This document shows positions 8,127-64,000 of a stretch of DNA of 64,000 nucleotides, piece after piece. This stretch comes from Psammoneis japonica. Taxonomy: Eukaryota. The DNA lies in NCBI GenBank assembly GCA_008632985.1, contig QPGO01000059.1, positions 62,001 to 126,000 on the forward strand, read 5' to 3'. Made by a program: the position numbers and the translations under genes. The stretch's first letter is position 1; each line of letters opens with the position of its first letter. The notes beneath the pieces are model-generated. The model was given only the letters and a program-made list of their open reading frames with translations. It was not told the DNA's origin and did no database searches.

Positions 8127-8750
8127 ATGTTGTCTGCAGCGAACGAGAAAAAGCAGCCATCTTTGTCAGGAAGACCTACCGGAAGAAGTCAATCTGCCCC
8201 TGCTGAAAAGAACCCGAGAACGCTACAGGCAAAGTTTGTATGGATACCGAAGTGTAGGTGAAGTACCTCAAATGTATCGAATTGCTGTGGGCGCGAAAGG
8301 AAGAGGATTGTTTGCGATTCAGACATACCTCCAAACACTCTGATTCACGTTGCTCCGTGCATTGGGTTCCAAAGCAAGAATACGACAATCATTTGCGACA
8401 CACGGTATTGGAACACTATCTCTTTAATGATACATCTCGTGGGAACAAGCTATTGGCGCTTGGCCATGGATCTCTGTTTAATCATTCACAGCATCCCAAT
8501 GTCGACTACCGTGTGGATTCGGTTGCTCTGTGCATTAGGTACTTGACGGGGCACAACGTCATTAGCAATGGAGAGGAATTGTGCATCAATTATGGAGGCA
8601 ATCTGTGGTTTGATGATGCAGATGATAAGAAGGACGATGCCACCAGTAGCAGCAGTGACGACTCGGTTGCGGATGGTAGCAACGTTTCTGCGACGGATGG
8701 AGCTGTGACAAACACCGGCGCCGGTAAGTATGGACGTTGTTAACTCCTAC
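8127..8750 (+). CDS. Small SET-domain protein-lysine methyltransferase-like protein
   Basis: GHGSLFNHSQHPNV and GEELCINYG SET motifs; frameshifts at both ends. Confidence 0.85.
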
Positions 8751-8770: not shown

Positions 8771-10033
8771 TCACAGAATCACACATCCAGTTCCACCCCC
8801 ATACTTCTTTTTCAACACCTTCATATTTATCCACGGTTCCACCTTCTTGTAATCGGATTCCACTGTTTCTTTTCGTTCTTGAGCAATTCCGCGACTTCCT
8901 TTAGGAATCCCTTCCAATCCGCCTGGGCATCAGGCACGCCATCAAATCGGTCTTCACCAAACAGCAAAAAGCAAAACTCTTGGATGTCGTCTTTTCCAAG
9001 TTGCCGTTCGTCCAAGAGGTCGAACAAACGGTTGTTGTAGCCAAGTTCTCTACATCGATGCAACGGGAGACCATAATTAAGCCATTCATTGTACTCGTTC
9101 ACCTCTTTTGCTTCGTCCATAAAGTCATCCAGCACTTCCAAACTGCGGGAGGAACAGCCACAGCAGGCGATTGAGTAACTCCAACGAAATAGATACAAAA
9201 GCCCGCAATAGTCCTTACCTCAATTCCAACTGTGAATCTAAATCATTATAGAACTCCACCACATCGTGCTCATCCGTACAAAGTCGAATTACAATCCACA
9301 CTGGAAGTCCTTCTAGCGATCGAAGCGCTTGCAGAAAATTCCGTTTGGATGATTCTTCGGAAGCATCTGCAGAATCGGTTGGGAGACCATCGGTGGCAAG
9401 TACCAAAACAACCCGAGTGCCATCCCTTACCAAATCGTTTTGCATCTCGACAATGTTTTCACGAATTTCATAAATATGACGAGCAAGAGGGGTTCCACCC
9501 ATTGGCGTGGTATTGCGCATGGTGCTTTGCGCGACAGAAACCTCTTGATCTACAAATCGGACCCTTTTCACCTACACTAAATTGCTGAGGTCCATTAACA
9601 GCACCGGGATCGTTAAGCATGCGAAACACTGTTGGAGCTTCCAAGAGCGCCGCCATTTGAGCATGATAATTGACAGTCTCCTGAATTTCCCTCCATCGTG
9701 TGCACTTCACAGCTCGCACGTCATCCTTCTTGCTGGTCTCCACCAGTCGATGACCATCACTCTCCACCATGGACCACTGTTATCAATTACCCATATTCGA
9801 AGCGGAAAAGCCGCACTATTCTTGGTCATGGCCTTGGCGAGTCCTTCTGTAAATCCCTGCTGTTTGAGTGCTTCAATGTCAGCACGACCTAGAACTTTTG
9901 ATTTCTGGTTTGGTAACATGACACGACTACTTCTGCCTTGACTAACGAGTGTAGGACGTGGAGCGGATGCTTGTGGAGCGGACATGAGAGGTACCGCGGT
10001 GGCATAAGCCATGGGAATGTCAGGGTCCGCCAT
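8771..10033 (-). CDS. vWA-like domain protein, paralogue 1; C-terminus ends CVIL (CaaX-like)
   Basis: WVIDNSG(S)[17 protein letters not shown] and IRLCTDE motifs. GT-AG intron at about 9144-9218. Ends KKKYGGGTGCVIL-stop. Confidence 0.85.
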
Positions 10034-10737: not shown

Positions 10738-11242
10738 GACAGCTTGTTGGTTTCGCAAACAGGACCTTAACCTCTGCAAAAGAATAGAATTGAACTTTAA
10801 TTGGAATTTAATATAGATCCGTATGAAAACTAGGAGATATGTGTTTCAAACTTTATCCCGGATTCTTCGTTTGTCACCTTTCAGACTTTATAGCTGCCTT
10901 TCTTCCATCTTTGCCGTGACGCTTCACTTCGGTGGGTGCGGGTGTAGTGGATTCAAAGGGAGGCCGTACATTTATCTTTTTTCAATGGAAGGTTCTCTCT
11001 CTTCAACACATTGACAGAGTGGACTACAGCGCTCCATCTACTTCTTGACAGCATATACTTTCGTTGTCGTCCCTGACACTCAACGGTACGGTGCAACAGT
11101 AACAAGCAAGCAAATGTCGTCAGACTGTAAAACTGTAGGCCAGAGCGAGAAGAACAATGATATGATCAAATCAAAACATGCATTATAAGTAGCTGAACTC
11201 TGTCGAGCTAAATCACCACAGGAGTACCTCCGACTTGAACCC

Positions 11243-12267
11243 TTACTTTGGGGTTGGGAAGGGAATTCCATCATGCAAATACTGCTCGTCATCAAACAAT
11301 TCAAGCCATCGCGCCCTGCAATCGTGTGGATTCACAGTCTGCAGTCCATTCCAAAGAGCCATGAAATGCTGCTTTGCCTTGATCCAATCTTCAAACTTCT
11401 CAAGTTTTCCGCGCCCATGTTTGTCCATCGCCTCTCTCTGCGGTATGTGACCAGCATCATGCCATTCGCCGAAAACTATATCCACCCCTTTGCACAATAC
11501 TCCCGAAAACATCAAACTGGGTGCGACAATGAATTCCATTCCCTCAATGTCCAGCTTAAGAACGACGCTTCCTAGTCCATCCCCACTTTGATTCTCTTGC
11601 TCATCATAGTTTCCGTATACTTCTGATGGGACGCGACGTTCAAGAATATGATGTTCAATCCACTTGGCAAAATGAATCACAGGCACCACTTCTTTCTCGG
11701 AATTTCCCACGCGATCCACAACAGAAAACCCCCAATCACCTTTGTTAACTTCCCTATCGTCGCGATAGAAATCCATGGTACCATCTTCATCCGAGAGACC
11801 GACGTTAATGGGAATGTATCTCCAGCCCATATCGGCATACGCCTTCTCAAGTTCCTTGTGCCTAGCGCGATGAGCGGGGTTGGGCTCAAATCCAAAAGCA
11901 CAAAAATCTCTATTGTCTCTCTTCTCAGCAGGTCCAAAGGCCTGCGCGAAAGCAATTGTGCGTTTTTTGCTTCAGAATACTTTTCTGCTTCGAACAAGAA
12001 ACGTGAGTGGATACCAATGTTGGCGCCAGCATCCAAGAAAACGTGATAGCACCCATCACCAAGACGAGGTTCCCTTTCCGTTTCTCTCTGGACAAGGGGT
12101 TCAGTGTTTAATTGACGCAAGCCTATCTCTTCTCGTAGAGGCCTCAGACCTCCAAACTGATCGGAGACGAAAACAAAGCCAACGAGGAATGCCATGAAAC
12201 TGGCTAACCTAAATGGTTTGAACACATTGTTCAGCGTTTGTGGCTTCCCGCTCTTGATGAAAACCAT
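11243..12267 (-). CDS. FkbM-like SAM-dependent methyltransferase family protein (type II membrane), frameshifted
   Basis: N-terminal TM segment; CYHVFLDAGANIG (motif I) and VVLKLDIEGMEF...IVFGEWH. Confidence 0.75.
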
Positions 12268-12589
12268 CTTGTGCCATGTGTGATACCGCGGTCAAGTCAG
12301 GGTCAAGTCTATTTGTTTTTAATGTTAGGAACCTTGCTGTTGTGTGGCCGTGCGGGTAAATCCTTGCTTTCGCAGACTTACTCTGCGCCTCAAAGCGCTT
12401 GGAACGGGAATGTGAGAAAAGTGACCACCTTGCTTTGTACTTCACGATTCAATTGTTTGATCACGGAACAAGACTGAAAACGCCATCATCATCGCAAGAC
12501 TCACTACGTCACATCCGAAATCTGTTTGAAATGCACACAAATCCAAACTTTCCAATGGCCTCCGCGACACCCTCTTCATCCTAGCTCAA

Positions 12590-13400
12590 ACTTTGGGCCC
12601 CCTTGCTCAACTGTGCCGCTCCTCCACACGGACGTCCACCTTGAACCCCTTAATTTGCTTCCTTCTCGGCCCCTCCTTCGCCCTGCCGACATTGGCACAT
12701 CCGCCCCTCCTGCTCCCGCCTCCCCCTCGGCCCCTTCCCGCCACCACTCCATCGCGGTCGATGTCAACGCACCCCAAGCTCCTTCTCGCCCTCCCCCTGC
12801 TGGTGTGCCTGCTCCTTCTTCCCCTGAATTAACTGGGCACACCACACGAGCGCGAGGCTGAAGTTGCTTGGCCCTCCTTCCTCCTCCTCTGCTGATGGCG
12901 GCTCCCTTGTTGTTTCTTCGCTCAACAATGACGGCATCTTCCTTCTCCATTTCACCATTGATCACCTTGGTGGCCTTGGCTTCTTTGCTCAATGCCTCCT
13001 CTTTGGCTCTGCACTCACATCCGTCCGGTCTCAACCCAAGCCACCTTGGTCCTCTCCCTCTGACTTTCGGCACTCTGATCCTTCCTGCTCTGCCTTTCTC
13101 TGTGCCTTGTCCTCTCCGTCTGCTCTCCTTCCATTGGCTGATTCTGCATGGCATTGCCTGTCCTTTGACCACTTTGGCAGCACCTTCCGCACTGCCTCTC
13201 CATCCCAATGGGCTCTTCAGGCTCTCAGCTGTTGCAACACAGTTCTCCATCTCTCTGTGCATGCCCTCCGCTTTGCCTCGACTCTTCCTGCACCTGCGCT
13301 CCCTGTCCCTTTGACCAAACACCCCATGTCCACTGCATTTGCTCTGTTCCATTCTGCCATCACTGCAGCTGCTGCCGTGCCTCCTTCTGCTGTTCCCTTC
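12590..13400 (+). mobile_element. 3' fragment of a CRE-like non-LTR retrotransposon (restriction-like endonuclease domain), decayed
   Basis: VHLEPLNLLPSRPLLRPADIG...IAVDV (PD..D), HHTSARLKL, and FTIDHLGGLG..A..LLFG. A second copy lies at 18325-18660. Confidence 0.7.
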
Positions 13401-15429
13401 CATTCTTTACAGGCTCTTCACAACTGTGTGCTTGAAACTCAATTTCCGATCTGCCACGACAGCAAAAAGCAACGACATCATGTTTTTTCTTAGACACAGT
13501 TTTTTGACAACATTCAATCTGTTGCTGTCATCCCTCCTCACACAGAGGTGCAGACTCTGGCCCACAGCAGGAGCAGCAGCACTGCTCAAACAAGAGGCTG
13601 CCTCCTGGCCACCTTGTTTGTTGGCACGCCAAACCCAGGAAATGTGCGCAAGTCAGCTTTGTTGCCACTCACCCTGTCTTCAGGCATCCCTTCATCATGA
13701 CATTGGCAGTGGGAGGCACTGGAGAAGTGCTTTGGGGCATTTCTTCTTTTCTTGTGTGCAAACTCATCGCCCCTTTTCAGTTTCAAAAAGTTGTCAAAAA
13801 GGGGCTGTGTGGGCAAAAAAAGCGCTGTCCTTTGTGCCACGCCATTTTTCCATTTTGTGAAAAAAGGGCTGGCTCAAGAGTGGTGAGAACTGGAGCATGC
13901 CACAGAGCCCTGAAAGCTTGACAAGCAAGCCCTTGTGCTGCCCACCGCCTTGTGCCTTCACTTCTTTTCAAGGTCAACAGGCCTTTGCAATGGCCCCCAA
14001 CTTGAGACTTCAAATGGCTTCATCTGCAAGCCATGTGGCAGCACTTGTTTGTCAAAACAGCTTGAGATTTGGAAGAAGCACTCAGGCCAAGAACACTTTG
14101 CCATGATGAAAAGTTGTCAAGGCTCAGGTCACCCCTGCTTTTGTCTCTGACCACATCTGCTGCCTCTGAGGGTCAGACACCACCAACCTGCAAGCCAACC
14201 AAATGCCACACAGCTGGCAACAAATGACAACTCTGCCTGCAAGAAAGGCACTCACCTCAGATGGGGCATTGCAGAGCTCAGCTTGACAGGGCCTCAAAAC
14301 CTGGCAAGTTGCTTTTCACCCCCTGCCAAGACACAGGAGCACATGCCACAACATTGACAGCACTTTTCACTTGCAATGCAGCTGCCATGTGCTGTGTGCA
14401 CACCCAATGCTGTGCTGGCAGCAGTTGCTGTGCACCTTGCACATCCACTTGTCAAATGTGCTCTGCGGCATTTGGCACACACACAAGCATCATTGCACTG
14501 CTGCCTGCTGTCCCTGAATGCTTGCCAAATTGCCAGCTCTGGCTTGAGCAATTCTGAGGCTTGATGCTGAATTTTTTTGACAACAAAGGTGCCACTTTTT
14601 GGGAGGGCATTTTTGCAATCAGGTGCAGCACAGCAGCTTTTAATCTGAAGCACATTTTTTGTTGTTTTGGCTCTGTGGCATGTCTGCCTCAACCAATGTC
14701 ACACAACTGATTTCACAAGCTTTCCTTCTGATTGCTTCATTTGGGTTTTCCTCTGCCACCCTGGCCTCCCCTTCATGTTGATGCTGTTCCTTTGTCTCGG
14801 CATTGTTGCCCCACCCACTTTGAGCATTGCTGGGGTGTGAGGTTGAGACTGACTGTGAAGGCTGCATTTGGGGGGGGCTTTTGCAGAGCCGGTGTTTTGC
14901 ACCATTTTGCAGCACAGCAGTTTTCAAGCCAAGCTGCTTGCTTTTCATTTTGTGCACGCATGACCACTCAGCTCAGTCTTCTGTTTGGGCACAAGATTTG
15001 TTGACTGTGAAGGCACCAAAGCCAGTGGTTGATTGCCAGCAGTTTGGCAACCTTGGGAAAACTTGCTTGACCTGACTTTCCTTCCACATCTGAGCCCAGC
15101 AATGCTTCCTGATCAAGCATTGCCAGCAGGAGTCAAATTTGTTGAGGTGCTTTGCCACATTTGAGTGCAGGCTTGGCAATGTGGGCATCACATTTTTAGA
15201 GCTCCTGAGTTGACAGAACTTTTTTCCATGCAAAACTTTAGAGCTTTCAGCTGAATGAGTTGGCTCCCATTGGCTGGAAGTCAGAGAGATGCCTGTCATC
15301 ACCATGCACAAGTGCAGCAGCTTCTCTCTGCTGCAGCCAGTGCTGGGCTGAGAGAGCCTGCTTGTCACAGGGCTTCCTGCCCTGTCATCTCTGCTGACTG
15401 GAAGGATTGTGCCACCCTTGCTGTGCACA

Positions 15430-16230
15430 GTTTCTTGGCATGCCTCACACGGCTGTCAATGTTCAAGGGACAACCATTTGCTTCCTTGGCTTCTTTGACA
15501 AAATCACCAAGAACTTCAAGACTGAATGAAGGGACAAAAGGATGAGATGATTGTGAAGGTGAGAAAGAAACTGCTTTTGGAAACACAGGAAACAAGAACA
15601 TGTGTTCTTGACAACAGACTCAGCTCCAGCTGAGAGCCCAGCTCATTGTGTGAAAATTGACCATGGCTTCATTGTTGGCACAAAGATGAGTCACCACTCA
15701 AATGGGTGGACCTTCAAGCAAGCAGCACAGTTGCCTGAGTAAAATCATGCTTGGCACACTCATTGCAAACACCATGAAAATTGGTGGGGAGACCATCAGC
15801 AGCAGCAAGAGCCACAGCCACTCAGGATCCTGTCACCTGTCACAAGGGGCAGAGAAGGCTGTGCAGCTTAAAAGTTTTGTTCAATGGTGCACACATGCTG
15901 AGCCAAAGGAGTTGCACCTCTTGGAGAAGAATTTTGCATTGTGCTCAGTGCAATTGACAAGTCTTCTCCCAAGCACTCCTTGTTTTGACAAGACGGCATC
16001 CATTGGCAGCTTTCATGGAGCAGCCGCTGTTGTTGACCACCACCCAAATGTGCAAAGGAGAGAATGCATTTTTTTGTCATGGCACCTCTGAGTCCATGAG
16101 CAAACCCTTGATGTTGGAGTTTCTTGACCTCATTTTGGCCGACTGTGTTGGCAGGTGCAGGAACAACTTTGCTGGATCTAGCCAGAAGAATGTGACAATG
16201 TCATTTCCGGTTGAGTGATCCAGCTGTGAG
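15430..16230 (-). pseudogene. Mutated vWA-like paralogue (third copy) inside block A
   Basis: Remnants [46 protein letters not shown] and SLEVLGDFVKEAKE. Internal deletion and stops; intron remnant at about 15522-15620. Confidence 0.85.
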
Positions 16231-16673
16231 TTCTTGCCATGTGCAATTTTTATGATGGTTCCTCTGATTCCTCTGCTCTTTTCATTCATTGCTGGCGGTT
16301 GCTGGACAAAAAGGAAAAAGGTGATCAAGCCATGGATGAAAGTCCCCCCCCCCCCCTCCACTTTCCTCCACGACAGCCACCTGACTCTGCGTGGAGGGCA
16401 GGCAGCAGGCAGACAATGCAGAACATGCTCGCGATCGCTGCCACCATGGGAGGTGCTCCTGCCTCATTCTCGTTGATCTGGAACACAGCATCCGGTTCGG
16501 TTGATGGTGTAGGCTCTAGTGATGCTCTGTCTAGTCTCCTTGTAGTTGACATGCTGCGTATATTCAGTGCCTTTCAAAACGTTTATATTTTAAAGATGCA
16601 TTAAAGTAAATACAATCAAAATTATGAAAGCTTCACAAACATGATGTCCCGGAATAAAGCATGGTATACTGCG

Positions 16674-17991
16674 TTACCAAAACCAGTGCCGTTTTCCATA
16701 TACCTTATCGAGCTTTTTCATATCAACAATGGGCTCCACTCTCTTGGTGATTGGGTTCCATTGTTTCTTTTCCTTGCTCACCATTTCGCCGACGCCTTGT
16801 GAAATCCCTTCCAATCGGCTTGGGCGTCAGGGACGGCGTCAAAGTTCTCGCGACCAAACAATATAAAAAAGAGGTCCGGAGCTCGTCTACCGTGAGCTGG
16901 CGTTCGTCGAGCAAGTCAAATAGTCGATTGTGATATCCGAGCTCTCGGCAGCGATGCAGCGGAAGAGTGTAGTTGAGCCACTTGTTGTTTTCGTACACTT
17001 CCTTGGCTTCACCAACAAAGTCGTCAAGTACTTCAAGACTGAGTTCAAGTTGGTTGTCCAAATCATTGTAGAAGTCAACTACATCGTCTTCGTCTGTACA
17101 AAGTCGCACTACTACCCAAACGGCAGCCCCTCGAGTGAGCGGAGCGCCTGGACAAATTCACGTTTGGTACTCTCGCTGCAGATACCATTGTAATCTGTGG
17201 GAAGGCCATCTGTGGCCAACACAATAACTACACGAGTTCCATCCCTCACCAAAGAAGGCTGAAGTGCAGCCACGTTGGCTCGAATCTCACGAACATGCTG
17301 TGCTAGTGGCGTAACGCCTCGTGGCGACGAGTTTTGCATTGTCTGCAACGCTACCGACAAGTCGTGATCCACATCTGGACCTTCGGCAATACTAAATTGT
17401 TGCGGTCCATTTTGTCTGCCAGGATCATTCAGCATGCGAAAGACGGTGGGTGCCTGCAACACAGCAGCCATTTGAGCGTGATATGTGACGGTCTCTTGAA
17501 TTTCTCGCCATCGAGTGCAGCCCACAAATTTGACCTGATCCTTTTTCCCTTCTACAATTCGATGACCATCGTTTCGAGACATCGATCCGCTATTGTCCAC
17601 CACCCAAATGCGGAGTGGAAACGCTGCGTTATTTCGTGTCATGGCCTGTGCGAGACCTGAAGAAATTTTTAAAAAAAATCGGAGCATGAGAGAAAGTTCA
17701 AAAAGCCAGTTCAAGGAGTACGACAACAGTTTTACAGCAAACATTTAGCTTCTATGAACTGAAAGCGTCATGAGTATCCACAGTCACCGATATTGAATCA
17801 CGAATGAGAATACATACCTCGTGTAAAGCCCTTGCGCTCGAGTGTTTTAATGTGTCGCTATTGAGTACTTTTGATTTTTCCTGTGGCAATAGCACTTGAC
17901 TACTTCTACCAGTGCTTACGAGACCTGGTCGCGGTGCCGTTGGAGGAGGTGGGGCGACGGGTGTCACGTTGTAATCGTATTGGGTTGCCAT
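16674..17991 (-). CDS. vWA-like domain protein, paralogue 2
   Basis: [25 protein letters not shown] and RLCTDEDD motifs. Intron at about 17658-17817. Ends [14 protein letters not shown]. Confidence 0.85.
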
Positions 17992-18324
17992 TGTCGTTGT
18001 GCTGTTGTTTACTTTCTGTTTTTTGTGTCATCGCCGTTGCGTTCGTCGCTCTCGCCAATGGCGGGATTCGCATCGCTCAGTACAAGAAGCACGCGGCAAA
18101 TCGTGTATGTATATTTAATACTGAGATAGCTGTAGGATTACATATGCACGACTCGACTCGATCGGTATGTTTCTACGCAGTATGTCAAACGCGTGGAACA
18201 CAACGGAAGATTCGACTCGTGACTCATTACGTCACGGCTTCCGGTAAAATCGGCATTGAGATCGCAGGTTTTTTTTTGTCAATGTCGCTCACTGCAGCGC
18301 ATGGCTCCACTGCTAGAGAGTAGA

Positions 18325-18660
18325 AACCTCCCTGGTCTTCTCCCTCTGACTTCCGACACTCTGATGCTTCCTGCTCCACCTTCCTTCATGCCTTGTCCTC
18401 TCCGTCTGCTCTTCTTCCATCGGCTGACTCCGCATGGCAACGCCTGTCCTCCAACCGCTTTGGCAGCACTTGCCGCACTGCTTCTCTCTCCCAATGGGCT
18501 CTTCAGGCCCTCAGCTGCAATGTGGTCCTCCATCTTTCTGTGCATGCCCTTTGGTTTACCTCCACTCTTCCTGCCCCTGTGCCCCCTGTCCCTTCGACCA
18601 AACGTCATGCTTCTGCCGTTTTTGCCCCGTTCCCCACTCTGCCGCCACTGCGGCCAATGA
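18325..18660 (+). mobile_element. Second, shorter copy of the CRE-like retrotransposon 3' fragment
   Basis: Collinear with about 13045-13385 (ctccctctgactt...tcccaatgggctcttcagg...ctgtgcatgccct). Confidence 0.75.
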
Positions 18661-19632
18661 TGGACAATGTTTTGGCCTCCTCACACCACAGAAAACAAGC
18701 ACCAGTCATTGACTCTCACACCAACCGCAACAGTGTGCACTTTTTGTTTGCAAGCTCCTGTTTAAAAAAAATCCAAACTCCCAGTTTAAAAGCCACACAC
18801 CCAAATCTCTTGCTGCTTTTCAACAACTGTGGCTGACCTGGCAGTTGGGGCGATGATGGGTCGAATGGTTTTTGGCCTGCTGCCAAAAATTTTGTGCAGA
18901 GAGAGGCACTCCAGGATGACTTGCTGGAAGAACATTTTCTGCTGAGAGCCAGCTTTCTGCCAGCTTTGTTGAAATCAGAAATGCCACAAAAACACACTGT
19001 GGGCATTGCCGCGTGCAATGAAAGTTGTGCCTCTCCTGTGATGCTTTCTCCATGCATGCACATTGCACTCGCCTTTGTCTGTTGCCGTGGCTGCCAGCGG
19101 CAGCAGCACACTTGGGTCAGGCTGGCAGCAACAGCAGCAGATGGCAGCACAAAAAATGCAAAGAAATCTTCACACAGACAGACTGCCGCTGTGGCCACTC
19201 TTGCTGGAGGGTGGTGACTCCCAAAAATTCTGGCTCATCTCCAACCAGCCATTGAGCTGTTTCTCAACAAGAGTGCTGTTTTGGACAAAACACTCATTTT
19301 TAAAAACAGACAACTAAATGATGAAGCACAAAAAGCAAGAGTGCTTGTGTGTGCACAAATCAGAGGAAATCAAGGGGTGGCATGTTGAAAAATGGTGCTT
19401 GAAAAGAAATCTGTGCACCAGGGTTGGAATGCAGAGCTCTGCAGCAAGAAGAGAGGTCATTGGTGCTGGTCAAAATCCTTGTCCAACATGAGTGGAGAGT
19501 GCACCCCCCGCATTTGGGAGTGCCAAGGGTCTCAGCAAATGCAGACAATTTTGTGTTGCACAGAAATCTGCATGATGGGGAGCAAATGATGTGTTTTCAC
19601 ACTGAACAGCTTCTTGCACAACCTCCTCCAAC

Positions 19633-19652
19633 CTCTCTCTCTCTCTCTCTCT
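19633..19652. repeat. (CT)n microsatellite
   Basis: ctctctctctctctctctct. Confidence 0.85.
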
Positions 19653-20649
19653 CCCCAGCCAGATTTCAAGATTTTTTTGCAAATGTCAAGCCACTTGGAG
19701 CCACTTAAAAAACACTTGCTTTTGCCACAAGAGGGAAAATGGCAGCTGGGTTTCATTTTTCACATTGTTTGGATGAGAGTTTGATGTGTGACAAATTTTC
19801 TGCATTGACAAGGTCGTGCATTGGCCTCATTGCTTCTCCACTGCTTTGGCGCCCTTTGCTGCAGTCACGCAGGTTTCCCTCGCATCATCAACACACGACC
19901 AAAAACTGCAGTGCACCAAGAATTGGCTGTCAACTTGCAGCATGTTTGTTTCATGTGGCTGGAGGCAAGCCACCACAATCTGGTGTGTGAGTTTGAACAA
20001 GCTGGGTGCATGCAGAATTTTGAAATGGGCTGATTCAGTGAAGTTTGTTCTCATGAACAAATCATCTCTTTGCATGAATGAGCAACTGCCAAGGATGACT
20101 TTGCAGCAGCATTGACCAGGAGAGTTGTCCAATGTTGTTGATTCTCCAACTGGACAAGCAAGAAGGCTGCACTTTCCTGCTTGGGCTGGCACCACTTGAG
20201 AGTTGGATGTTGTTGCTGACAAGAGTTGATGATCCATTGCACACCCATGTGTCCTTCTTGCAAAGTGGATCGTTTTCCCACAGGCTCCAGTGGTCTCTGA
20301 AATCACCCATGAAAGCAATGTTTGGACATCCACAGGGCTTGTGTCTCGTGAAGTTTTTCCAAGTCCTTTTGCCACGCAATCATGGCGAAGAGGAACTGCT
20401 GGACAGCTCATGCATTCCGAGTGCTGGGAGTGATGCGGAAAGCGAAGACGCGCGTCCTTTTCGTTCAAAGCCCAACAGCATTTGGATTCGCACCGTCATC
20501 GCCGCTGATGCAATTTCTCAAATTTCCTTTCCAAACAACTAAATTGGCAGAGGGAAAGAAGCTGTGTCGCATTGTAGGAAATCGTGTCCGCGTGACAAAG
20601 GGTTTTTTCTTTCATGGTGAGGCTTGTTAATTTTATATGGTGTGTGGAA

Positions 20650-23075: not shown

Positions 23076-26000
23076 ATGAAAGTATTCGCCGTTGCGCTTC
23101 TCGCAACTCTGGCTCATGCTCATGCTGAGACCAGACGCTTCAGGGGAACGAGAAACTTGAAACAGGTGAAGAGAGACAAGGAATGCCAAGGCAACAAATG
23201 TAAGTTTGACATTTCTGATATTTCAGATCTCACCGATGCCGAGGAAATCGAGATAGAGATTAGGGAGGGCGTCACAAGGACATTCAAGGCCTCAAGACCT
23301 GATAGCAGGAGGGACATTTTCCATGGAGAGGATGGTCTAGCGGCATGGATTTGCTGTTCGAGAGCTAGAAACCGAGGGACCGGGTCCAATGCCACCTTAG
23401 TATTTGGATCCATGTCTGATGAAGAGAAGATCTATCAGATTGCACCCGATGAGAATGGAGAAATCCAAGTCACTGAAACTACTGGTCAGATTACGGAGAT
23501 GAAATCGATCCAATCGAGCCTCCCCCAGAGGCTGAAATCCAAAACAGGAGGCTTGCGAACCACACAGAGTTGCGAAAACTCTCTCCGCTCTTCAAATCAC
23601 GACCCCGATTCGATGTCGATGAGAATGGTAAGCGTCGCAAGCTTTATGATGATAGGGGTGGAAACATTGATGTTATGGTTGTTTGGACTCGGGATGCAGG
23701 TACAGCCATCGTCTCTAAACTTGTAGTCATGTGCCCTTTCAAGCCACCAACCACCACAATCGATTCCGACCGAGTTGGAAGACCCAGCAAACTGTAAATC
23801 ACCCAACCACAAGCTGGGATGATTGGGCTGATTGAGCTAGCAATCGAAGAGACAAATGTGGCCTTCACCGAGTCATCAGTCAACACCCAGCTCAGGCTCG
23901 TCCATGCTTACAGACAGGCCTACGGAAGCCAACGTGAAAGGAAGGCAAACAACTACCGCCCTTGCTGAATCACTACGATGACATGGAAAATGGACGATGT
24001 CCATCGAAAACGCGACCAGTACGGCGCGGACATGGTTGTGGTTTTGGTTGCTGGNCGACAAGACGGCGGAATATGCGGAACTGCATGGTCACCACGGACA
24101 ATTTGCATTTCATCCACGAAATACAGTTGCGCGACTGGATATTCAGCTTTGGGCATGAGATAGGTGAGTGAATCCGTCTTTTTCGGTTCACGTCCCCTCC
24201 ACCAAAATGCTCTGAAACTAACTTGGTCCTTTTTGCCGTGCTTTGACTATTCAGGACACAACATGGTAAGTTAGAAACATTCACCAAAGAAATCGTCTTA
24301 GAATCTGTATGCTCACCATAAATGAACGATCTCTCAGGGGTGCTACCATGATCGAGGACGAAGCAATTCTTGCAACACCAATTTGGATGAATACCGATAC
24401 GGATATCGCGACCCGAACGCCAACTTTCGAACAATTCTTGGGTACTCGTGCAAAGCGGGAGAATGTGACAACAACAAGGGCGGAGGATGCCCACGCATCC
24501 AACGCTTTTCGACACCAGATAAAGAGGTAGGAAGACGCTCTTAGGACATTCGGTGTAGTCTGGAGTGATTAGTGCTCACTCTTTGTGTTCCTGTTTTCGG
24601 TCAGTTCAATTATGAGGAAACAAATGGGCACCGTTGGGAACCCGAACCAGCAACTGCGCTCGCCGTATCAACGACGTAGGGCCAATCGCCGGTTTCAGGA
24701 AAGTAGTAGACTGCGAAAGAGATTCCGACTGCAACGACAATGACGCGTGCACCGTGGATACATGCGACAGGTCAAGAGGTGAATGTGTGCATAGAGACAC
24801 TTGTGTTCCAAAACCGCCACCACCCCCGAGTAACCCCCCTCCGCCTCCTCCACCGCCTCCACTGTCAATAACGTTCCTACGCGACACCAGGCTCCTTTCA
24901 AGCTCTCTTTACGACCGATGCCGGAGGGAATGGACAAGCTGGTAAGATTATGTACAAATCCAATGGCTGCAAAATGGCGATCTAACACCATTCTTCATTT
25001 CGCTCCCTCTTCGCCTGTTCATCTCCTTCGTAGGAACTACTTTGACATTGAGGCGGAAAAAGACGTAGAGATTGTTGCTTTGACATTCATACGCGCCTCA
25101 AAACAAGGACAGAAGTTGAGATCTGGACAAGACCTGGGCGGTACGAGCTGTCAAACTCGGATGGACGTTGGGAGTTGTTGGAGAAGGTAACTGTGACTGG
25201 AAAAGGTGAAGGCCAGTTCACAGAGCTTCCATCTCTGAGGAATCCTGTCGGGGTGAAACGAGGCGAACGGCAAGCCTTTTATATCACTCTTCCGGTGAAA
25301 ACCGCTGAATTAAGATACACCGACGATGATGGAAGTGAGGGAGAGCTCTATACCTCTGATGGTGTTGTCAAAATGTACAAAGGAAGAGGTGTGGTCTACC
25401 CATTCGGCCAGTCCTTTGCTCCGCGCATTTTCAATGGCAACATCAAATACATAATATCTTCCGGAACAACGCCGTCAACCCCCCGCCCCCCTCCACCGAC
25501 ACCGCCACATCCTCCCCGTCCCACACCGCCGGGTCCGTCTACCGGAGCGGTGGAGAGTCTATATACGACCGATGTTGGTGGAACCGGACAAGCAGGTATG
25601 ACTCAGATGCTTCTTGTGATATTGACTTCTTGTATGTAAACCTTAACAGTCCTCTCTGTTTCGAATTTGATTTCATCAGGTAATTACTTCATTGTCGATA
25701 GCACAGAGGACGTGGAGATTGTCGGATTTGACATTCACACCCGACTCAAATCAAGCGTCGAAGTCGAAATCTGGAGCCGTGCGGGAGAATACACACTTGA
25801 CAAGCCGGGGTGGAAGTTGTTGGAGAAAGTAAAGGTGACTGGAAAAGGAGAAGGACCCTGACTGAACTCCCGGATTTGAAAACGCCCGTCCGCATCTCAA
25901 AAGGTCAAAAGCAGGCCTTTTACATCACGTTACCAGTCAAGACCGCCGAGCTCAGGTACACCTCTGATACTGCCGATAAGGAGGGAAGGTTGTACAAAAC

Positions 26001-26350
26001 GGATGGTGTTGTCAACTTTTACCGTGGCCGTGGAGTGGTCTATCCCTTTGGGCAGTCATTTGCAACTCGCATCTGGAATGGAAAATTCGCTACAAGAAGG
26101 TTTCGCGCAGTAGTGGCGGAGGAATCACTCCTGGATCCTGTGAGGATGACTTCAAATGGTACTTTTCTAACTCCAGGGTCAGAAACAAGCGTTGTGACTG
26201 GGTCGCCAGGAAGTCCAATCTGCGATGCAGGTTGAAGGGTGTGGATCGCCGACGTGCTTCTGAAGCGTGCCCCAGGACTTGCAACATGTGTTAGAAAGTT
26301 CAACCAAAGGGGGCTCCTTCAACGTGAAGGACAGCTTAAGCTCTTGAAGT
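23076..26350 (+). CDS. Secreted reprolysin-like (metzincin; peptidyl-Asp metalloendopeptidase-like) protease with a Cys repeat, Pro linkers and two C-terminal beta-domain repeats; multi-exon, frameshifted
   Basis: Signal peptide MKVFAVALLATLAHA; IDVMVVWT; RDQYGADMV; spliced FGHEIGHNMGCYHD; CNDNDACTVDTCD; duplicated QAFYITLPVKTAELRYT...GRGVVYPFGQSFA.RI.NG. The 3' end is approximate. Confidence 0.85.
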
Positions 26351-47200: not shown

Positions 47201-50200
47201 TGACTCTTTGGCACAGTGTGGTGCTGTGTCTTTGTTTGGGCAGGCAGTGCTGAGAAAGTCTTGTGACAGAGTTCTCAATGACCAGCTTGATGCCACATGT
47301 TGCTGGTTTGTCCTTCCTTGCAATGGCCACAAATCTTTTTCTTCCTTGCACTGCTGTCATCTTCTTTGTCATCATCATTGCCACACAGTGTGGCACAAAC
47401 TTGCCCCCTTTTTGTTTTTTAGAGGAGTGTGTTGACCAAAACCCTGTTTTCTTGCAAGGGCATCAGTGCATCACATTGTTTTTTGGTTTCTTTGCAGTGG
47501 CTGTCCCAGTTGCAGCCACTGCTTTGCCCTGCCCTTTTGCTGACTGAGACTTGCCAGCAGCAGTGGGCAGAAGCAGTGGCTGCTCTTCTTTGGACAAAGC
47601 TGAAGTGCCACCATCACAGTGACTTGCAGAGTTGTCATCCCCCTCCTCCTCCTTGTCATCCCCCAGCTCCTCATTGTCTTCTTTCCTTGTCCTCTTTTTG
47701 GCTCCATTTCTTTTGCTTTCTGCAGTTCCTTTTTTCCTTCTCCTTCTCTTTCTTCTTCTTTGCTGCACTTTTTGCCACTGCTGCTGACTTGGCAGTCGGC
47801 AGCCAATCGCTTTCTTTTCTTTGAGCAGCCCCGGGGGTGGGTGGCGCACACAATGACGCCATCACAGGGTCACTCATCCTCTTTGACGATGCCTTGGGCT
47901 CTCACAAGAAGAAACTGCTGTCCTGATTTTGCAACAAGGATGATGTGAGACATGTCAAAAAGGAAGCAAAACCACCACACCAGTTGCCATGTTGCAAGGA
48001 AGGCTGGGGGGGTGTTGATGACCACATCTTTTGGGAAGCCCCAAAAGACAAAAAAACACAGAAGAGCCAACAAGATGATCAAAGATTCATGGCAGGTGCA
48101 CCTCACAGGTTGTGTTCTCACAATGAAGGATGCTGCTGCTGGGCACTTCAAAAAAGGAAGCACAACCACCAGATTCTTTGCCATGTTGCAGGGAAGACTG
48201 GGAGGGGCTGTTGATGACTGCATCTTTTGGGAAGCCTTTTAAAAGACAAGAAACACAGGACCAACAACAAGGTGGTCAAAGACTCAGAGCAGCTGCACCT
48301 CACGGTGCAATTGTTCCTTTGGCTTGTGAAGACAGCGTGGGTTCAGCAGGAGCATCCACATGCATCAAATTTATCACCCAACACTCTGTCTCATTTGGGT
48401 GACAAAGTCACAGTTTGCATCGCATGTTGATGTGAAGACAAAGCTGGATGGTGTGTCAAAGCAAGAGTGACTGGCATTTTTGTCAGTGCATGCTCCAATG
48501 TGAAACAAAGAGTGCCTGGTCAAACACAATGGCTCTGAGTCAGGCACAACAATCTGTGGCAACAGATGGCATGCAAGTGGCCACTGAGTGGTCCAAGAAA
48601 AAGAAGAACAAGGGTGGCTCCAGCAGCACATCCTCAAACAAGTCTGCAGCCCCTCTCTTCATGTGCTCCTCACAATGTTTCACCAATGGAGGACCTGCCA
48701 GACACACCTGCAGCCAGCTGTTGTTGGTGATGAGCCAGACAACATTGGCGTTGAAGAGGGAGAAGAACCAAACCAACAACGCAAGATTGTTCTGTTGGTG
48801 CCACTCCTTCAACCAACTGCTGTGGCTGTCTTGTCCTGGAGGAAATGGAGAAAAATTTCAATGTCACCATCAACTTCATAAAAAGGGACAGAGTTGCCAC
48901 TCCACAAAAACACATTGGAGGGAGCAAACACACTGCACATCATTGCATTCTCAACTTGAGTTTGTGTCTGTGCCAAAAATTGCACAGGACACCTCATCAC
49001 AAGGCACACAAAGACATGGCAGATGACATCATTTTGATTTGCAAGGCATTCTTGAACAACACAAGCATGGAGCACTGTGGCACAGCCAATGGCCACTTTG
49101 GTGAGTTCATCACCATGTTGCATGCTGGCAAGTGTCTGTGTTGTTGCTGATGCAGCTGAATCTGTGCACCAGCACAGCTTCCCATTCATCATTGTGCACA
49201 GGAACAGAAGAGTTCTCTGTGCCATCTTGATGGACATGCAAGATGTTCTTGATTTGTCTTGACATGGAAACAACTTGCAACTGAGTCAACTTGTCAACAG
49301 ATGCCACAGACAGAGGGGACAAAGTTGCAATCGGGATTCAGATGCCAAAGTTTCCAACACAGTGAGTCATTGCTGCTGGCATGCCATCAAGAATGTTGGT
49401 GCCACTGGACAGCAACAAAGTGACAAGGTTGCAGTTGGATGGGTGTTGCTTGGTGGCCATCCAGGCCGGTCTTGACAGGATTGGGGTCAACAAGCAAGTC
49501 ATTCCAGATGGACACAGAACAGCCAAGTGTGTTCAGTGCAAAGCTGGCAAATGAGCTGAGCCAGCCTGCAGACAGCATGGGGTTTGAGACAATGTCAATG
49601 ATGGCTGCATCAGCAGCACTGGATGCAAACAAGAGTGCAGGCAACCATTTGGACACTCAAAACTGCACAAACAAAGATGTGGGCTGTGTTGGCACATTGA
49701 ATGAAGTGGTTCATGAAGCAGATGGCTGAGCCACAAGAAACAGCTGCACGGGTGCATGAAAAAGGCATGCAGTCATCTGCTCATGGAGAGAATGGGTGGT
49801 TGCAGAAATGCTGCCAATGGCAAGTTGAGAAGCTCATGTCAGTGGGGCCAGGTGCAAAGAGCTCGGCAGTCTTGAGGAAGGCACAAGTGAGTCAGCTGTG
49901 GCACTGGACAGGAAATTGAATTCCACACCAGAGTTGCACTTTTCAAAAAATCTGGCAACTGGGCTGGGCACATCAGCTTGATTGGAAAGGAGTGCAGCTG
50001 GCAGGAGATGGTGACAAGGAAAGCACAGGAAGGGAGCCACTGGGCATTGCACACACTGAACCCTTCTGCAAAGCTGAGAGTGGCAGCTCAGAGGTGGGAG
50101 AGTCAGGGCATGCCACATTGACAGAACACAACCTCCTGGTGCATGACTTCCATTGGCTGTGCTGCAATCATGCCAGAGAGGAAGCAAGAGTCAGGGAGTG

Positions 50201-53299: not shown

Positions 53300-55905
53300 G
53301 TGCAGATGACACTAAAGAGACTGAGTGCTGTCCTGCTGGCTGTTCTTGAGAGAGATCTCACAGATTGAAGAGATTTTTTTGCTCGTGTCCCGCCGCTCAC
53401 ATGTTGACCTTGCAGATTGGGAGTTGTTTGGCAATTTTGAAAAGGCATCCCACTGAAGAACAAGTTTTGACCAAGGCTGTTGAGCCCAAGAAGTTGGAGC
53501 CTGGAGAGCACATGGTGGTGTGTCCCTTCCTTTCTTGGCACCTTGTGTTCTGTTTTGTTCAAAAGTGTGAGGCACAAAAAAGTGGAGTGCTGTCTGTGCA
53601 GCAAGTGACTCATCACATGGTTGAAGGGACTTTCACAGCTTTGAAGTCAGGGAGCACGGAACAAGCATCATGCCCTTGAAGGTGACATGCAGGAGGGGGG
53701 AGGGGCACAGTGTTTTTTTTCTCTCCACTTTTGCTCCCCTCTCCCACTCTGTTGTTGATTTGTGTGCATTTGCTTTGTGCTCTTGCAACAAAAAGATCCA
53801 AGCAGACAGAGCTCTTGATCTTCTCATGGTTTCACCATGGAGGGGAAAAGTGAGCAGGGCCTGAGCAGCTTTGGGCTTGACATGTTCAGGCGTCACATTT
53901 GACATGTGGCCAGTGCGGCGCACAGGGAAGAGGCAGGAGCAACAATGCGCTGCTGATGGGTGGGCAGTGTCTCCTCTGGATCCTCTCACAAATCAGTTGA
54001 TTGCAGAGTGATTGCATTTTTGTCAAGTTCTTCTTTGGCTCTGTTGATGGCAGGCATGCGGCTTGTGGGTTTGGGGGGGAGCTGGGGCTCCCCAGTTTAT
54101 TTTGTCTGGCGAGATGGGTTGTGAGCCACTGGGACGCACCAAGTGCTGCGTCCCGCACCACGCAGCACGGACCACGACGAGCGCATGGTGCACAGTGCAG
54201 CACACACAGTGCACGCAAGCGAACCGCCATGGCAGATGCCATCCATGTCAAGAAGATGCCATTGAACGAATGTGCCATGGAGGATGATGCGCCTGCTGCA
54301 GATGAGTCTTTTCTCTCCTGAGGAACTTGTTCAATGAGAATCAAACAAGAGTTCTCAGACAAGATCACACTCTCTCTCCTTCTTGCATGCAACAAAAGGC
54401 CAGTCCAGGTGCCCAGCTAGAGCAGACTGCAGTTTAATGTGTGCAACAGATCGCATGATGATGGTTTAACCCACACACTGCGGGTGCAGTCCCTCCAGGT
54501 TTAACAGGCAGTGTGATGACGTGTTCCAAAAACTGGGCCCCCGCTTTTTTTGTCGGGGGGATTCCCCTTTTTATGCGAAGTGCTCCCCCCTAAACCCACA
54601 AGCCCACAGGCATGCTGCAGACACCGGCAGATGCACATCTGCCGCTGTCCCAAATTTTTGACAAAAATGCAAGAAAAAGAACAAGAAGAAACTTCAGCAA
54701 AAAAGCAAAAACAGGGAAAAAACAAACAAAACACTTGCCACCAACTCTCACAAAAAATGGCCAATGGCCAACAGACATCACACACTGCAACGCTGTTCTG
54801 AATCAACATTCTGAGCACTCCATTTTCTCACACAGGTGTGCCAAATGCCATGAGCATCTGCGAGGAAGAACAAACATCTTGCAGAGGAGCTCAAGATTTT
54901 GTGAAGAGAGGGCAAATCACAGCAATGAAGATGTTGAGGCCAGAGAAGTCATTGAGAACATGACGCTGCTTGCAAGTGCCTGCACCTTCTGAGGGAGAGC
55001 TGTGCACACATTTTTTTTATGTGTGCTGGGGGATCTCACCAATGTTCCACACCATTTGGCCAGCTGGGCAGCAGAGTCAGGTGAGGTTGGCCAGAGGATC
55101 TTGTCAAAACAGATGGCACACAACATTGGGTGGCATGGCACCCAACTGTTGTCCTCTTTTGACTGGTGCACACAAAGTTGAATGGCTGATGGGCGGCTTG
55201 TGTGAGGGAGTGTGTTGGAACACAAGGTGTGCAAGAAACGTTGGTCTTGTCCTCACTTTTGCTTTGGCTTCTGCGCCAGGATGCAACAACATGTGGCAGT
55301 GTGGGGTGCATTTGGAATGTGGCTGCAGTCCAAGTGGTGAGCTTTGGAGAGTGGTGGTGAGACCAACACAGATTTTTCCCCAAGAAGTTGGAACCTGGAG
55401 CATGTGGCATTGCTCTGATCTTGCCTCTCTTCCGCTGAGCATTCTTCCTGCAGCTGTTGCTCAAGCACATGTCAGTGGAACCTGGTCAGCAGTGCAGCAA
55501 GCACCTCATGTGGTTGAAAAGATTGGTGCTTGCCATTCAGTGCTGTGCTGGGATTTGAAGTCAAGGAGCACAACAAACCATGACTTTGGAGTTGACGTCA
55601 GCATGTTTTCCTGCACACACTTTCTTCTTGGCATGTTCTCATCCCTGCTGTTGTTGACTTGCTTGCGTTTGCATTGTGCACTTGCAACAACAAAGATCTC
55701 AGCAGATGGCCCCCTTGATTTTCTGATGGCTTTGTCATGGAGGGGAAGAGTGAAGGGGATCTGAGGCCCCCTTGCCCCCACCCATTGTGCCACCAGCACA
55801 CTGCTTCTTGTTTGGCACACAGCAGCATGGCATGCAGATGAGCGATGTTTCTGGTCACCAGGAACCTCCTCTGGATCCACTCACAATGCAGTTAATTGCA
55901 GAGTA
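53300..55905. other. CpG/TpA-depleted block D containing two diverged copies of one segment (about 53400-53870 and 55310-55770)
   Basis: Shared cccaagaagttgga.cctggag, ttgaagtca.ggagcac, cttgcaacaa.aaagatc and catggagggg.a.agtga in the same order. Confidence 0.82.
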
Positions 55906-56209
55906 ATTTCAACTTTTGAAAATTCTTTTTAGCCCACCGGTGGCAGACGTGCTCTCTGCCAGATAGAGGGAGAGGGCCCATTCACTGCCTGCCTGAAGGA
56001 AATCCGTGGCGACGACTCCTTGCGACAAAATCGCGACAAAAGCTACAAGCAATGGCTGCAGCATCGTAAAGTTAAAATGCTCAAGAGTGACCAAAGCACT
56101 TCTACCCTCCGCACTCAATTTGATCAGCAGCAGCAGTATAGCATGTACTGAGTTGTCCCCACCAAAGTGTTGCGAATTTACTACTTTGTTTATTAATAAA
56201 GTAGTAGGG

Positions 56210-62551: not shown

Positions 62552-62984
62552 GTGGTGTTGTGTTTCATCATGACTGTGAGTTGATTGTTGTGCAAAGTGA
62601 AAGCAAAAATCAGTGTCTCTTCCAAGCTCCACCATCAAATTTTTTGGAGTGTGATGCATGTCTGGTGCACCATGAGGCTGCTCCTTGTGGGAAGACCTCT
62701 TGTGCATCAAAGCAAGAACCAACCATCTTTTGTGCTGAGAAATGTGCAGTGGATGACGCGCGGCACACATGTGGCTGCTCCACTGTTTGAAACTGTTGAA
62801 GTGGTTCTTGTTTTGCCAGCCACATTTGCTCCCTTTGTCCATCAGAGCCAATGCCAAGACACCCTCCAACCATGTGTGAGAAGTGGAGCATGTGCACAAA
62901 AATGATGCTGGCACAATTTTTTGCACACCCCGCCAGCAAAACATGGCATTGTTTTCACCCCATCATCTCAAAAACGCATGTTGA

Positions 62985-63870
62985 AAGTTCAACTTCAACA
63001 AGCAGTGATCTCACCTCCATCATTTTGTGAAAAAAACGTCAAACAATTTGATGGATGGACATGTTTCAATGACCACATCTCCATCACAAACCCCATCATT
63101 CAAACAAACCCTCAGTGCCTTGCCCCCTTTTCATTTGCACTTTCTGTTTTGCAGCAGCTTCCAACTCTTTTTGCTGTTCATGAAAAAAGTTCTCACAAGA
63201 TTGTTCCCAGGAAAAAAAATTGCTGAGTCGAACGGGCCAACTCTCACCTTCTGAGAATTGAGTCTTGAGTCTCTTTTGAGCAGATTAATTTTTGGTGGGT
63301 GCCCCAAGCAACATTTTTCCCACCAAGGTTGCTCAGAGAATTGTTTGATGATCATGGTTAAAATGATGGTCTTCACAAAATTTCAGTTGGAGATTTTCCC
63401 ATCTGATGATGACAATGGATGGTGACACCATCTCCTCATGAAAGCTGTTGGCCATTGAGTCTTGTGACTTTGTCAGTCCATGATGCAGGACACTTGGATG
63501 TGTGGACCAACGAAGCTTCAATTTCCAACTGCAGACAGCCACAAAGCAGACAGCATTGCCATTTTTAGCTTGGAAGCTGTCACAAAATGGGCAGCAAGAT
63601 GAATTTGTTTTGCTCATTGTCCTTGTGGGAAAATGCAATCTGAGCAGAATGACCAACTCTGCGCTGAAGGACTGAGCACAAATTTCTGGAGAAAACAAAA
63701 AGGCAGAGCCAAATTCCTTGCACATGAAAAGGGGGTGAGGTGCTGAGAGGGTTTGTTCAGATGATGACAGGTTTTGCAGTGGAGACACAATCATTGAAAC
63801 ATGTCCATCTGCCAAATCATTGGACAGTTTTTTCCCACAAAATGGAGGTGATCACTGCTTGTGTCAAATG
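62985..63870. repeat. Diverged inverted repeat: arms about 62985-63140 and 63720-63870
   Basis: caagcagtgatc..acctccat...gatggacatgtttcaatga...aacaaaccctc...cccccttttcat matches the reverse complement of the second arm. Confidence 0.8.
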
Positions 63871-64000
63871 GCCTTCATGTTGACAAAAGATGACATCTCA
63901 CAATGTCATGAGACAACATTTTGGGGGGCACCCCCACCACTTTTTTGTTTGCAGCTCCTGCAAAGGTGCAGGAATGGCCCCACAATGTCCCAGCCTTTTC

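Follow-up and report, generated by a model that had tools for sequence, protein, structure and literature searches.

A decayed vWA-like gene copy stripped of TA and CG steps in a depleted block of a diatom chromosome

The locus and its three paralogues

The window, that is the whole stretch of 64,000 nucleotides analysed here, is part of the 91-Mb assembly of the diatom Psammoneis japonica. Its minus strand carries three paralogues of a vWA-like gene, recognized by HMM and tblastn searches and by alignment (Table 1). Two of them, G1 and G3, have normal TA and CG content (45 TA and 63 CG in G1, 51 TA and 80 CG in G3). The third, PSI, is decayed: besides an internal deletion it has several small indels and a stop at 15700, and its last ~85 codons are absent. 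PSI lies within block A, one of five sharply bounded blocks of the window in which TA and CG are near zero, TG and CA are raised and GC content stays near 0.5. TA and CG are normal in the genes and introns beside the blocks.

Table 1. Features of the locus (positions within the window)
Feature	Position	Strand	Remarks
G1, intact paralogue, normal TA/CG	8771..10033	-	76-bp intron at 9143-9218 (5 TA, 4 CG)
Old 5'-truncated 3' end of 6.2-kb retrotransposon	12532..13420	+	Reverse transcriptase element; left edge of block A
Block A, TA-poor domain	12652..16509	.	Two-state segmentation; CG-poor domain narrower, 12933-16370
Single-copy stripped DNA, no Pfam match	13421..15417	.	4 TA and 13 CG in 13421-15429
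PSI, decayed vWA-like paralogue, TA/CG-stripped	15418..16194	-	HMM, tblastn, alignment, lesions, composition
97-bp intron-like insert in PSI	15522..15618	-	At G1's intron site; ends CAG; donor not intact; 0 TA, 0 CG
Deletion junction in PSI	15971..15980	-	~174 nt missing relative to G1
G3, intact tandem neighbour, normal TA/CG	16674..17991	-	161-bp intron at 17657-17817 (9 TA, 5 CG)
Shorter fragment of same 6.2-kb retrotransposon	18324..18680	+	Left edge of block B (18322-20539)

One support for the vWA label is a motif that we take to be MIDAS-like. Pfam VWA/VWA_2 (PF00092/PF13519) matched 8 of the 19 homologues scanned, below the curated cut-off and with a best E of 1.8e-5; the G3 fragment and P0002 gave no vWA match as Pfam queries, and a PDB search with the protein gave no informative match. 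Its named close homologues include diatom ones (Nitzschia, Entomoneis). Two further genes lie near G1, at 8258-8743 and 11189-12291: one has a SET domain (PF00856), the other a weak match to FkbM methyltransferase. Contigs correct a frameshift at 8361.

As assembled, G1 and G3 contain frameshifts. Contigs of X1 and X2 alike correct two of those in G3, the others being outside the comparison rows shown for these contigs. X2 contigs cover G3, and one X2 contig skips the G1 intron exactly, so that this run, although labelled 'DNA?', has a spliced joint. Because of the two corrections and the skipped intron, G1 and G3 are most plausibly working genes, the assembly itself containing indel errors. 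The original prediction had called both paralogues intact and normal; this holds for their TA and CG content, but not for their reading frames as assembled.

The insert of PSI occupies the intron site of G1 and the intron of G3 is missing, which indicates that PSI arose at DNA level. It is a single copy by DNA search and stands head-to-tail with G3. Identity is 60% between PSI and G3, 56% between PSI and G1 and 65% between G1 and G3. That PSI is a fresh copy of either neighbour is ruled out by these 56-60% together with the differences between G3 and PSI at codon positions 1, 2 and 3 (0.37, 0.25 and 0.58, respectively). The third-position differences are too far ahead for a copy dead from birth, which suggests a long functional history and a later death. 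Judged by its sequence, PSI would be an old third paralogue that evolved under selection and then died in place. A tree groups it with G3, though with a support of only 65-75%; its intron site is common with G1, yet it has more bases in common with G3 (68 vs 49). PSI had been proposed as an internal control. It is indeed a duplicated host gene, but since it did not arise recently from either neighbour, the pair makes a weak before/after control.

The loss of TA and CG is not an assembly artefact, since an X1 contig spanning 15474-16363 departs from the assembly over these 889 bp by only 3 letters and 1 gap. X2 has no contig over PSI, which is not evidence of silence. Differences between X1 and the assembly are no more frequent in block A (9 in 2084, 3 in 889) than outside (9 in 1188, 18 in 1461), so no ongoing hypermutation of the block is visible in X1 contigs. 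This fits targets that are already spent, without proving them.

Recognizable transposon accounts for only ~0.9 kb of the 3.9-kb block A. The stripped DNA at 13421-15430 and 18681-20540 gave no Pfam match in 12 read-through frames; DNA search found no second copy of the former and only short matches for block B. Stripped stretches 13421-15417 and 18681-20540 possibly represent further dead genes. Elsewhere in the window there is an inverted repeat pair (62918-63140 / 63594-63976, about 75% alike and related to locus L050), which may represent the termini of a degenerate DNA transposon or MITE. The window further contains local direct repeats of 67-80% likeness at 24834-26294, 47957-48303 and 53749-55930.

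Depletion and direction of change

Between 15430 and 16230 there are 3 TA and 5 CG, where base content predicts 56.2 and 44.0, together with 86 TG and 90 CA (about 50 each expected). Compared to the rates of G1 and G3, the Poisson probabilities are 6e-10 for TA and 9e-14 for CG. Context-free decay was simulated 20,000 times from each of G1 and G3; no run reached the 2 TA or 2 CG that PSI retains in the aligned core, the minima being 10 and 11. GC content of PSI is unchanged at 0.47. The paralogue inside block A is thus stripped as predicted, and the strings quoted with the prediction were located at 17301/17346 (intact) and 15901/15946 (mutated). Further, the insert has neither TA nor CG in its 97 bp, compared to 14 TA and 9 CG in 237 bp of G1 and G3 introns (p 5e-4). 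Since these introns keep their TA and CG and the insert is stripped, protein selection cannot be what spares the neighbours.

Direction of change was counted in a five-way alignment, only in two core segments (columns 312-474 and 660-1016, ~500 nt); the poorly aligned 5' part was excluded, and global pairwise alignment misplaced PSI around its deletion. From G3 to PSI, TA becomes TG/CA 13 times vs 1 reverse change, and CG becomes TG/CA 18 times vs 0. The corresponding counts are 11 vs 0 and 16 vs 0 from G1, 12 vs 0 and 8 vs 0 from the paralogue L003, and 6 vs 1 (p 0.12, not significant) and 10 vs 0 from L002, all four comparisons having one common target. No significant forward/reverse asymmetry is found in five pairs of intact paralogues. 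The codon-alignment check proposed with the original prediction thus returns an excess of TA and CG transitions on PSI rather than its absence.

Steps common to G1 and G3 tell the same direction: PSI keeps 0 of 5 TA and 1 of 11 CG, 11 of these 16 having become TG/CA (binomial p 3e-4), compared to 92 of 177 other common steps kept. Per-base Fisher tests at sites where G1 and G3 agree are not significant (p 0.11 and 0.075), and they are low-powered, with at most one base of a step changing and n of 5 and 11. There is other damage as well: 92 of 307 sites at which G1 and G3 agree differ in PSI, 29 of them by transversion, the parent sequence itself being absent from the comparison.

When polarized by 116 of 120 homologues (those of up to 480 aa), PSI turns out to have lost 22 of 60 conserved residues. 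Single transitions account for 17 of the 22 losses, and 13 of the 17 are TA to TG/CA (5) or CG to TG/CA (8). The probability of this is 3e-6 given the context share of intact genes and 0.006 under a conservative null, which was added because contexts across codon borders take the neighbour base of PSI itself. Among replacements in the four intact paralogues, 0 of 20 are of this type. These 13 transitions and the directional counts bear out the claim that host-derived sequence acquires the signature. The accompanying argument against intrinsic transposon composition is upheld as well. As a control PSI is sound, though of low power; the young retrotransposon copies provide the stronger evidence.

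The 6.2-kb element encodes a reverse transcriptase (PF00078), and as its copies are 5'-truncated and its 3' end is rich in A, we presume that it belongs to the non-LTR class. The family (loci L021-L040 and L053-L058, besides the two fragments in the window) includes a young subfamily whose copies are 96-98% identical and differ almost only at TA/CG steps. Of 143 candidates, 40 were scored; 30 loci were retrieved, and 17 of these make up the young set. Excluded were L041 (94-97%), two copies at 88%, and the old copies, which at ~72-76% to the young group are too diverged for polarizing. Counted by copy and site, the 17 copies have TA changed to TG/CA in 204 of 812 cells and CG to TG/CA in 105 of 2117, compared to 338 transitions and 25 transversions in 32605 cells at other bases (~1%); the cells are not independent, and polarization by majority assigns some sites wrongly, with 44 and 35 apparent reversals. 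Expressed per base, 12.6% changed at TpA, 2.5% at CpG, 0.5-0.8% at TpC, TpT, CpC and CpT, and 0.7% at ApA/TpT steps, and the copy comparison gives a TpA rate excess of at least about 20-fold.

On the sense strand, changed TA steps became TG 129 times and CA 75 times. Both outcomes occur in different copies at 21 of 50 TA sites, which requires independent events on both strands. Two full-length copies have 224 of their 238 differences in TA/TG/CA/CG steps, a figure in which 103 changed-neighbour differences are counted, by our own reading, as switches between TG and CA. The changes in young copies show that the signature was written after insertion, TA first. In line with this order, the TA-poor domain extends further than the CG-poor one at 8 of 9 internal block edges. 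It is thus on the chromosome that the signature arises.

There is a hint that flank composition governs mutation of the last 300 bp of the element: 9 of 195 cells are changed in the 13 copies whose flank is normal vs 15 of 30 in the 2 whose flank is stripped, the copies being related by descent. One copy, L027 (L053), has a normal downstream flank, yet 6 of 15 cells in its last 300 bp and 24 of its 50 TA sites are changed. TA load differs widely between young copies, from 5/36 to 24/50. The old fragment in block A has 32 CG vs 60.9 expected and the single-copy interior 13 vs 124.9; the fragment, being less depleted, may have arrived late or simply lies at the edge. TTAA changes least in young copies (5/97) and ATAC/GTAT most (34/62). 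CTAA/TTAG changes often (17/47) though it is common among block survivors, so no simple flank rule applies. TA steps surviving in the five blocks are mostly TTAA, TTAG/CTAA and TTAT/TTAC (48 of 56).

A proposed process and its alternatives

Regional, TpA-specific transitions on both strands, accompanied by slower CpG ones, thus affect chromosomal DNA of any origin; neighbouring genes and their introns are spared, and a native intron-bearing gene is affected. We suggest that PSI was probably a working third member of the local vWA-like family, which died where it stands and was stripped within a chromosomal domain of position-dependent mutation acting on both strands, on TpA and then on CpG. 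TpA would quickly turn into TpG or CpA; CpG would be converted more slowly to the same products, until both steps are exhausted. The domain might be silent chromatin, which would then guide the process. The CG half could be accounted for by deamination of 5-methylcytosine and the TA half by an enzyme guided to silent chromatin. Its chemistry might be adenine deamination, a leading but tentative guess taken from the preprint on Bigelowiella natans discussed below. The original prediction spoke of the same mutator; TA and CG were indeed both lost in PSI, but probably by two processes, a fast one for TA and a slow one for CG. PSI may have died first and been stripped afterwards, or a spreading domain may have silenced it.

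Genome searches touch on both halves. Cytosine methyltransferase domain PF00145 has 27 matches; several are clustered and broken by stops (G000 C297, C301, C10, C28), possibly an expanded or transposon-borne family. A deaminase search gave 9 matches, one of which we take from its motifs to be TadA/ADAT2-like, a protein expected in any eukaryote, and no candidate TpA enzyme beyond ordinary deaminases. A Tet/JBP search gave 0 matches, its controls being blank as well.

The foremost alternative, though improbable, is that TpA lesions occur throughout the genome and that repair or selection shields active genes from them, with no targeting of silent DNA. Block edges do stop near genes (the TA-poor domain of block A ends at 16509 and the X2 contig over the 3' end of G3 starts at 16569), and normal regions are themselves mildly TA-poor, at about 0.5-0.6 of expected. 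Introns and ~300 bp upstream of G3 nevertheless keep TA and CG, so selection at protein level cannot explain the pattern; a version with region-limited repair would be compatible with it.

We give somewhat less credit to a process akin to RIP, set off when homologous repeats pair, with PSI affected by leakage from the retrotransposon or through a lost twin. Young repeats of 96-98% identity are being mutated, and retrotransposon fragments lie at the left edges of blocks A and B. However, PSI and the adjoining 2 kb are single-copy by DNA search, G1 and G3 are only 56-60% identical to PSI and themselves untouched, and the fragment keeps more of its CG than the single-copy interior does. The direction of change is, moreover, opposite to fungal RIP, and the affected region in B. 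natans is single-copy according to the preprint (10.64898/2026.01.13.699255).

Both halves might also derive from error-prone repair synthesis, of polymerase-eta type, starting at T:G mismatches in methylated CpG. Hot spots of this polymerase are WA to WG changes; TA and CG losses coincide in space and both strands are affected. We nevertheless regard this as quite unlikely, because ApA/TpT steps are changed at 0.7% compared to 12.6% at TpA, transversions are almost absent, and TA loss precedes CG loss and reaches beyond it. Least probable is that RNA or cDNA was edited in the course of retrotransposition, or that the composition is intrinsic to transposons and PSI is a captured fragment: TA to TG does exceed TA to CA on the sense strand, and young copies of full length already have little TA (in 400-bp windows mostly 0.1-0.5 of expected), but both strands are affected, one and the same site has turned into TG in some copies and into CA in others, and PSI, which keeps an intron-like insert, is single-copy and stands head-to-tail with G3, contradicts it unless it lies within a mobile element; a native intron-bearing gene excludes editing of retro-intermediates as the sole cause.

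Comparison with known systems

Fungal RIP causes C to T changes (at CpA) and thereby creates TpA; it is regional, ruins repeats and can reach host genes. The process at this locus is likewise a regional, context-specific set of transitions reaching both repeats and a host gene. In contrast to RIP, it destroys TpA, leaves GC content unchanged and has no evident partner copy; 0 of 26 common TG/CA steps became TA in PSI. The opposite direction and the missing partner argue that it is not RIP.

In diatoms, islands of transposable elements that DNMT5 methylates at CG are described in an otherwise unmethylated genome (Hoguin et al. 2023, PMC9998398). Such islands would produce the CG half of our signature, but they do not account for TpA loss. 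CpG changes agree with decay of 5-methylcytosine, both in PSI (18 vs 0 and 16 vs 0 towards TpG/CpA) and in young copies, where CpG changed more than CpC/CpT (0.7-0.8%).

TpA to TpG/CpA hypermutation was measured in integrated viral DNA of B. natans (Mettrop et al., bioRxiv 10.64898/2026.01.13.699255). According to this preprint, the rate per generation is raised ~1000-fold and only some lines are active; the enzyme is unknown and an adenine deaminase is proposed. The process is framed there as defence against foreign DNA, although 24 of the enriched Pfam families are likely of host origin, host-type families being noted among TpA-poor genes. There are several likenesses to that system. Firstly, A:T to G:C transitions in young copies are concentrated at TpA, compared to 0.5-0.7% at TpC/TpT. 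Secondly, both strands are affected (129 TG and 75 CA outcomes). Thirdly, the process acts in local regions, leaves TpA-poor, CpA/TpG-rich clusters over the long term and affects single-copy DNA. The differences are equally clear. B. natans is a chlorarachniophyte and our host a stramenopile; TpA depletion here is near exhaustion and comes with CpG loss; and unlike viral targets, PSI is a native intron-bearing gene, whereas the retrotransposon fits a wider reading as selfish DNA. The words 'CpG', 'diatom' and 'pseudogene' do not occur in the main text of the preprint. Our literature search, mostly without subscription journals, found no report of TpA hypermutation in diatoms, nor one in which a native diatom gene is affected along with CG decay.

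By analogy one might speculate, although we consider it rather unlikely, that diatoms and chlorarachniophytes share a chromatin-guided, adenine-deaminating TpA mutator that spreads from transposons to native genes. It would act on double-stranded DNA, require neither foreign origin nor a homologous partner, and TpA deamination would run ahead of methyl-CpG decay. If this were so, silencing would become irreversible gene loss.

Only one regional A:T to G:C mutator has been published, and it was presented as a defence against viruses. That a native gene with an intron bears the signature shows a process at work on the chromosome itself, irrespective of whether the DNA is foreign. The young retrotransposon family is a natural reporter, with known target sites, TA-before-CG order and a hint of position-dependence, which opens the enzyme and guide of the TpA process to experiments in a diatom. 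Annotation and dating are concerned as well, as TA and CG steps in repeats and pseudogenes of this genome are lost much faster than a neutral clock assumes. Taken together, the TA half of the signature matches TpA hypermutation in B. natans, from which the diatom host, the accompanying CG decay and the native gene as a target set it apart.
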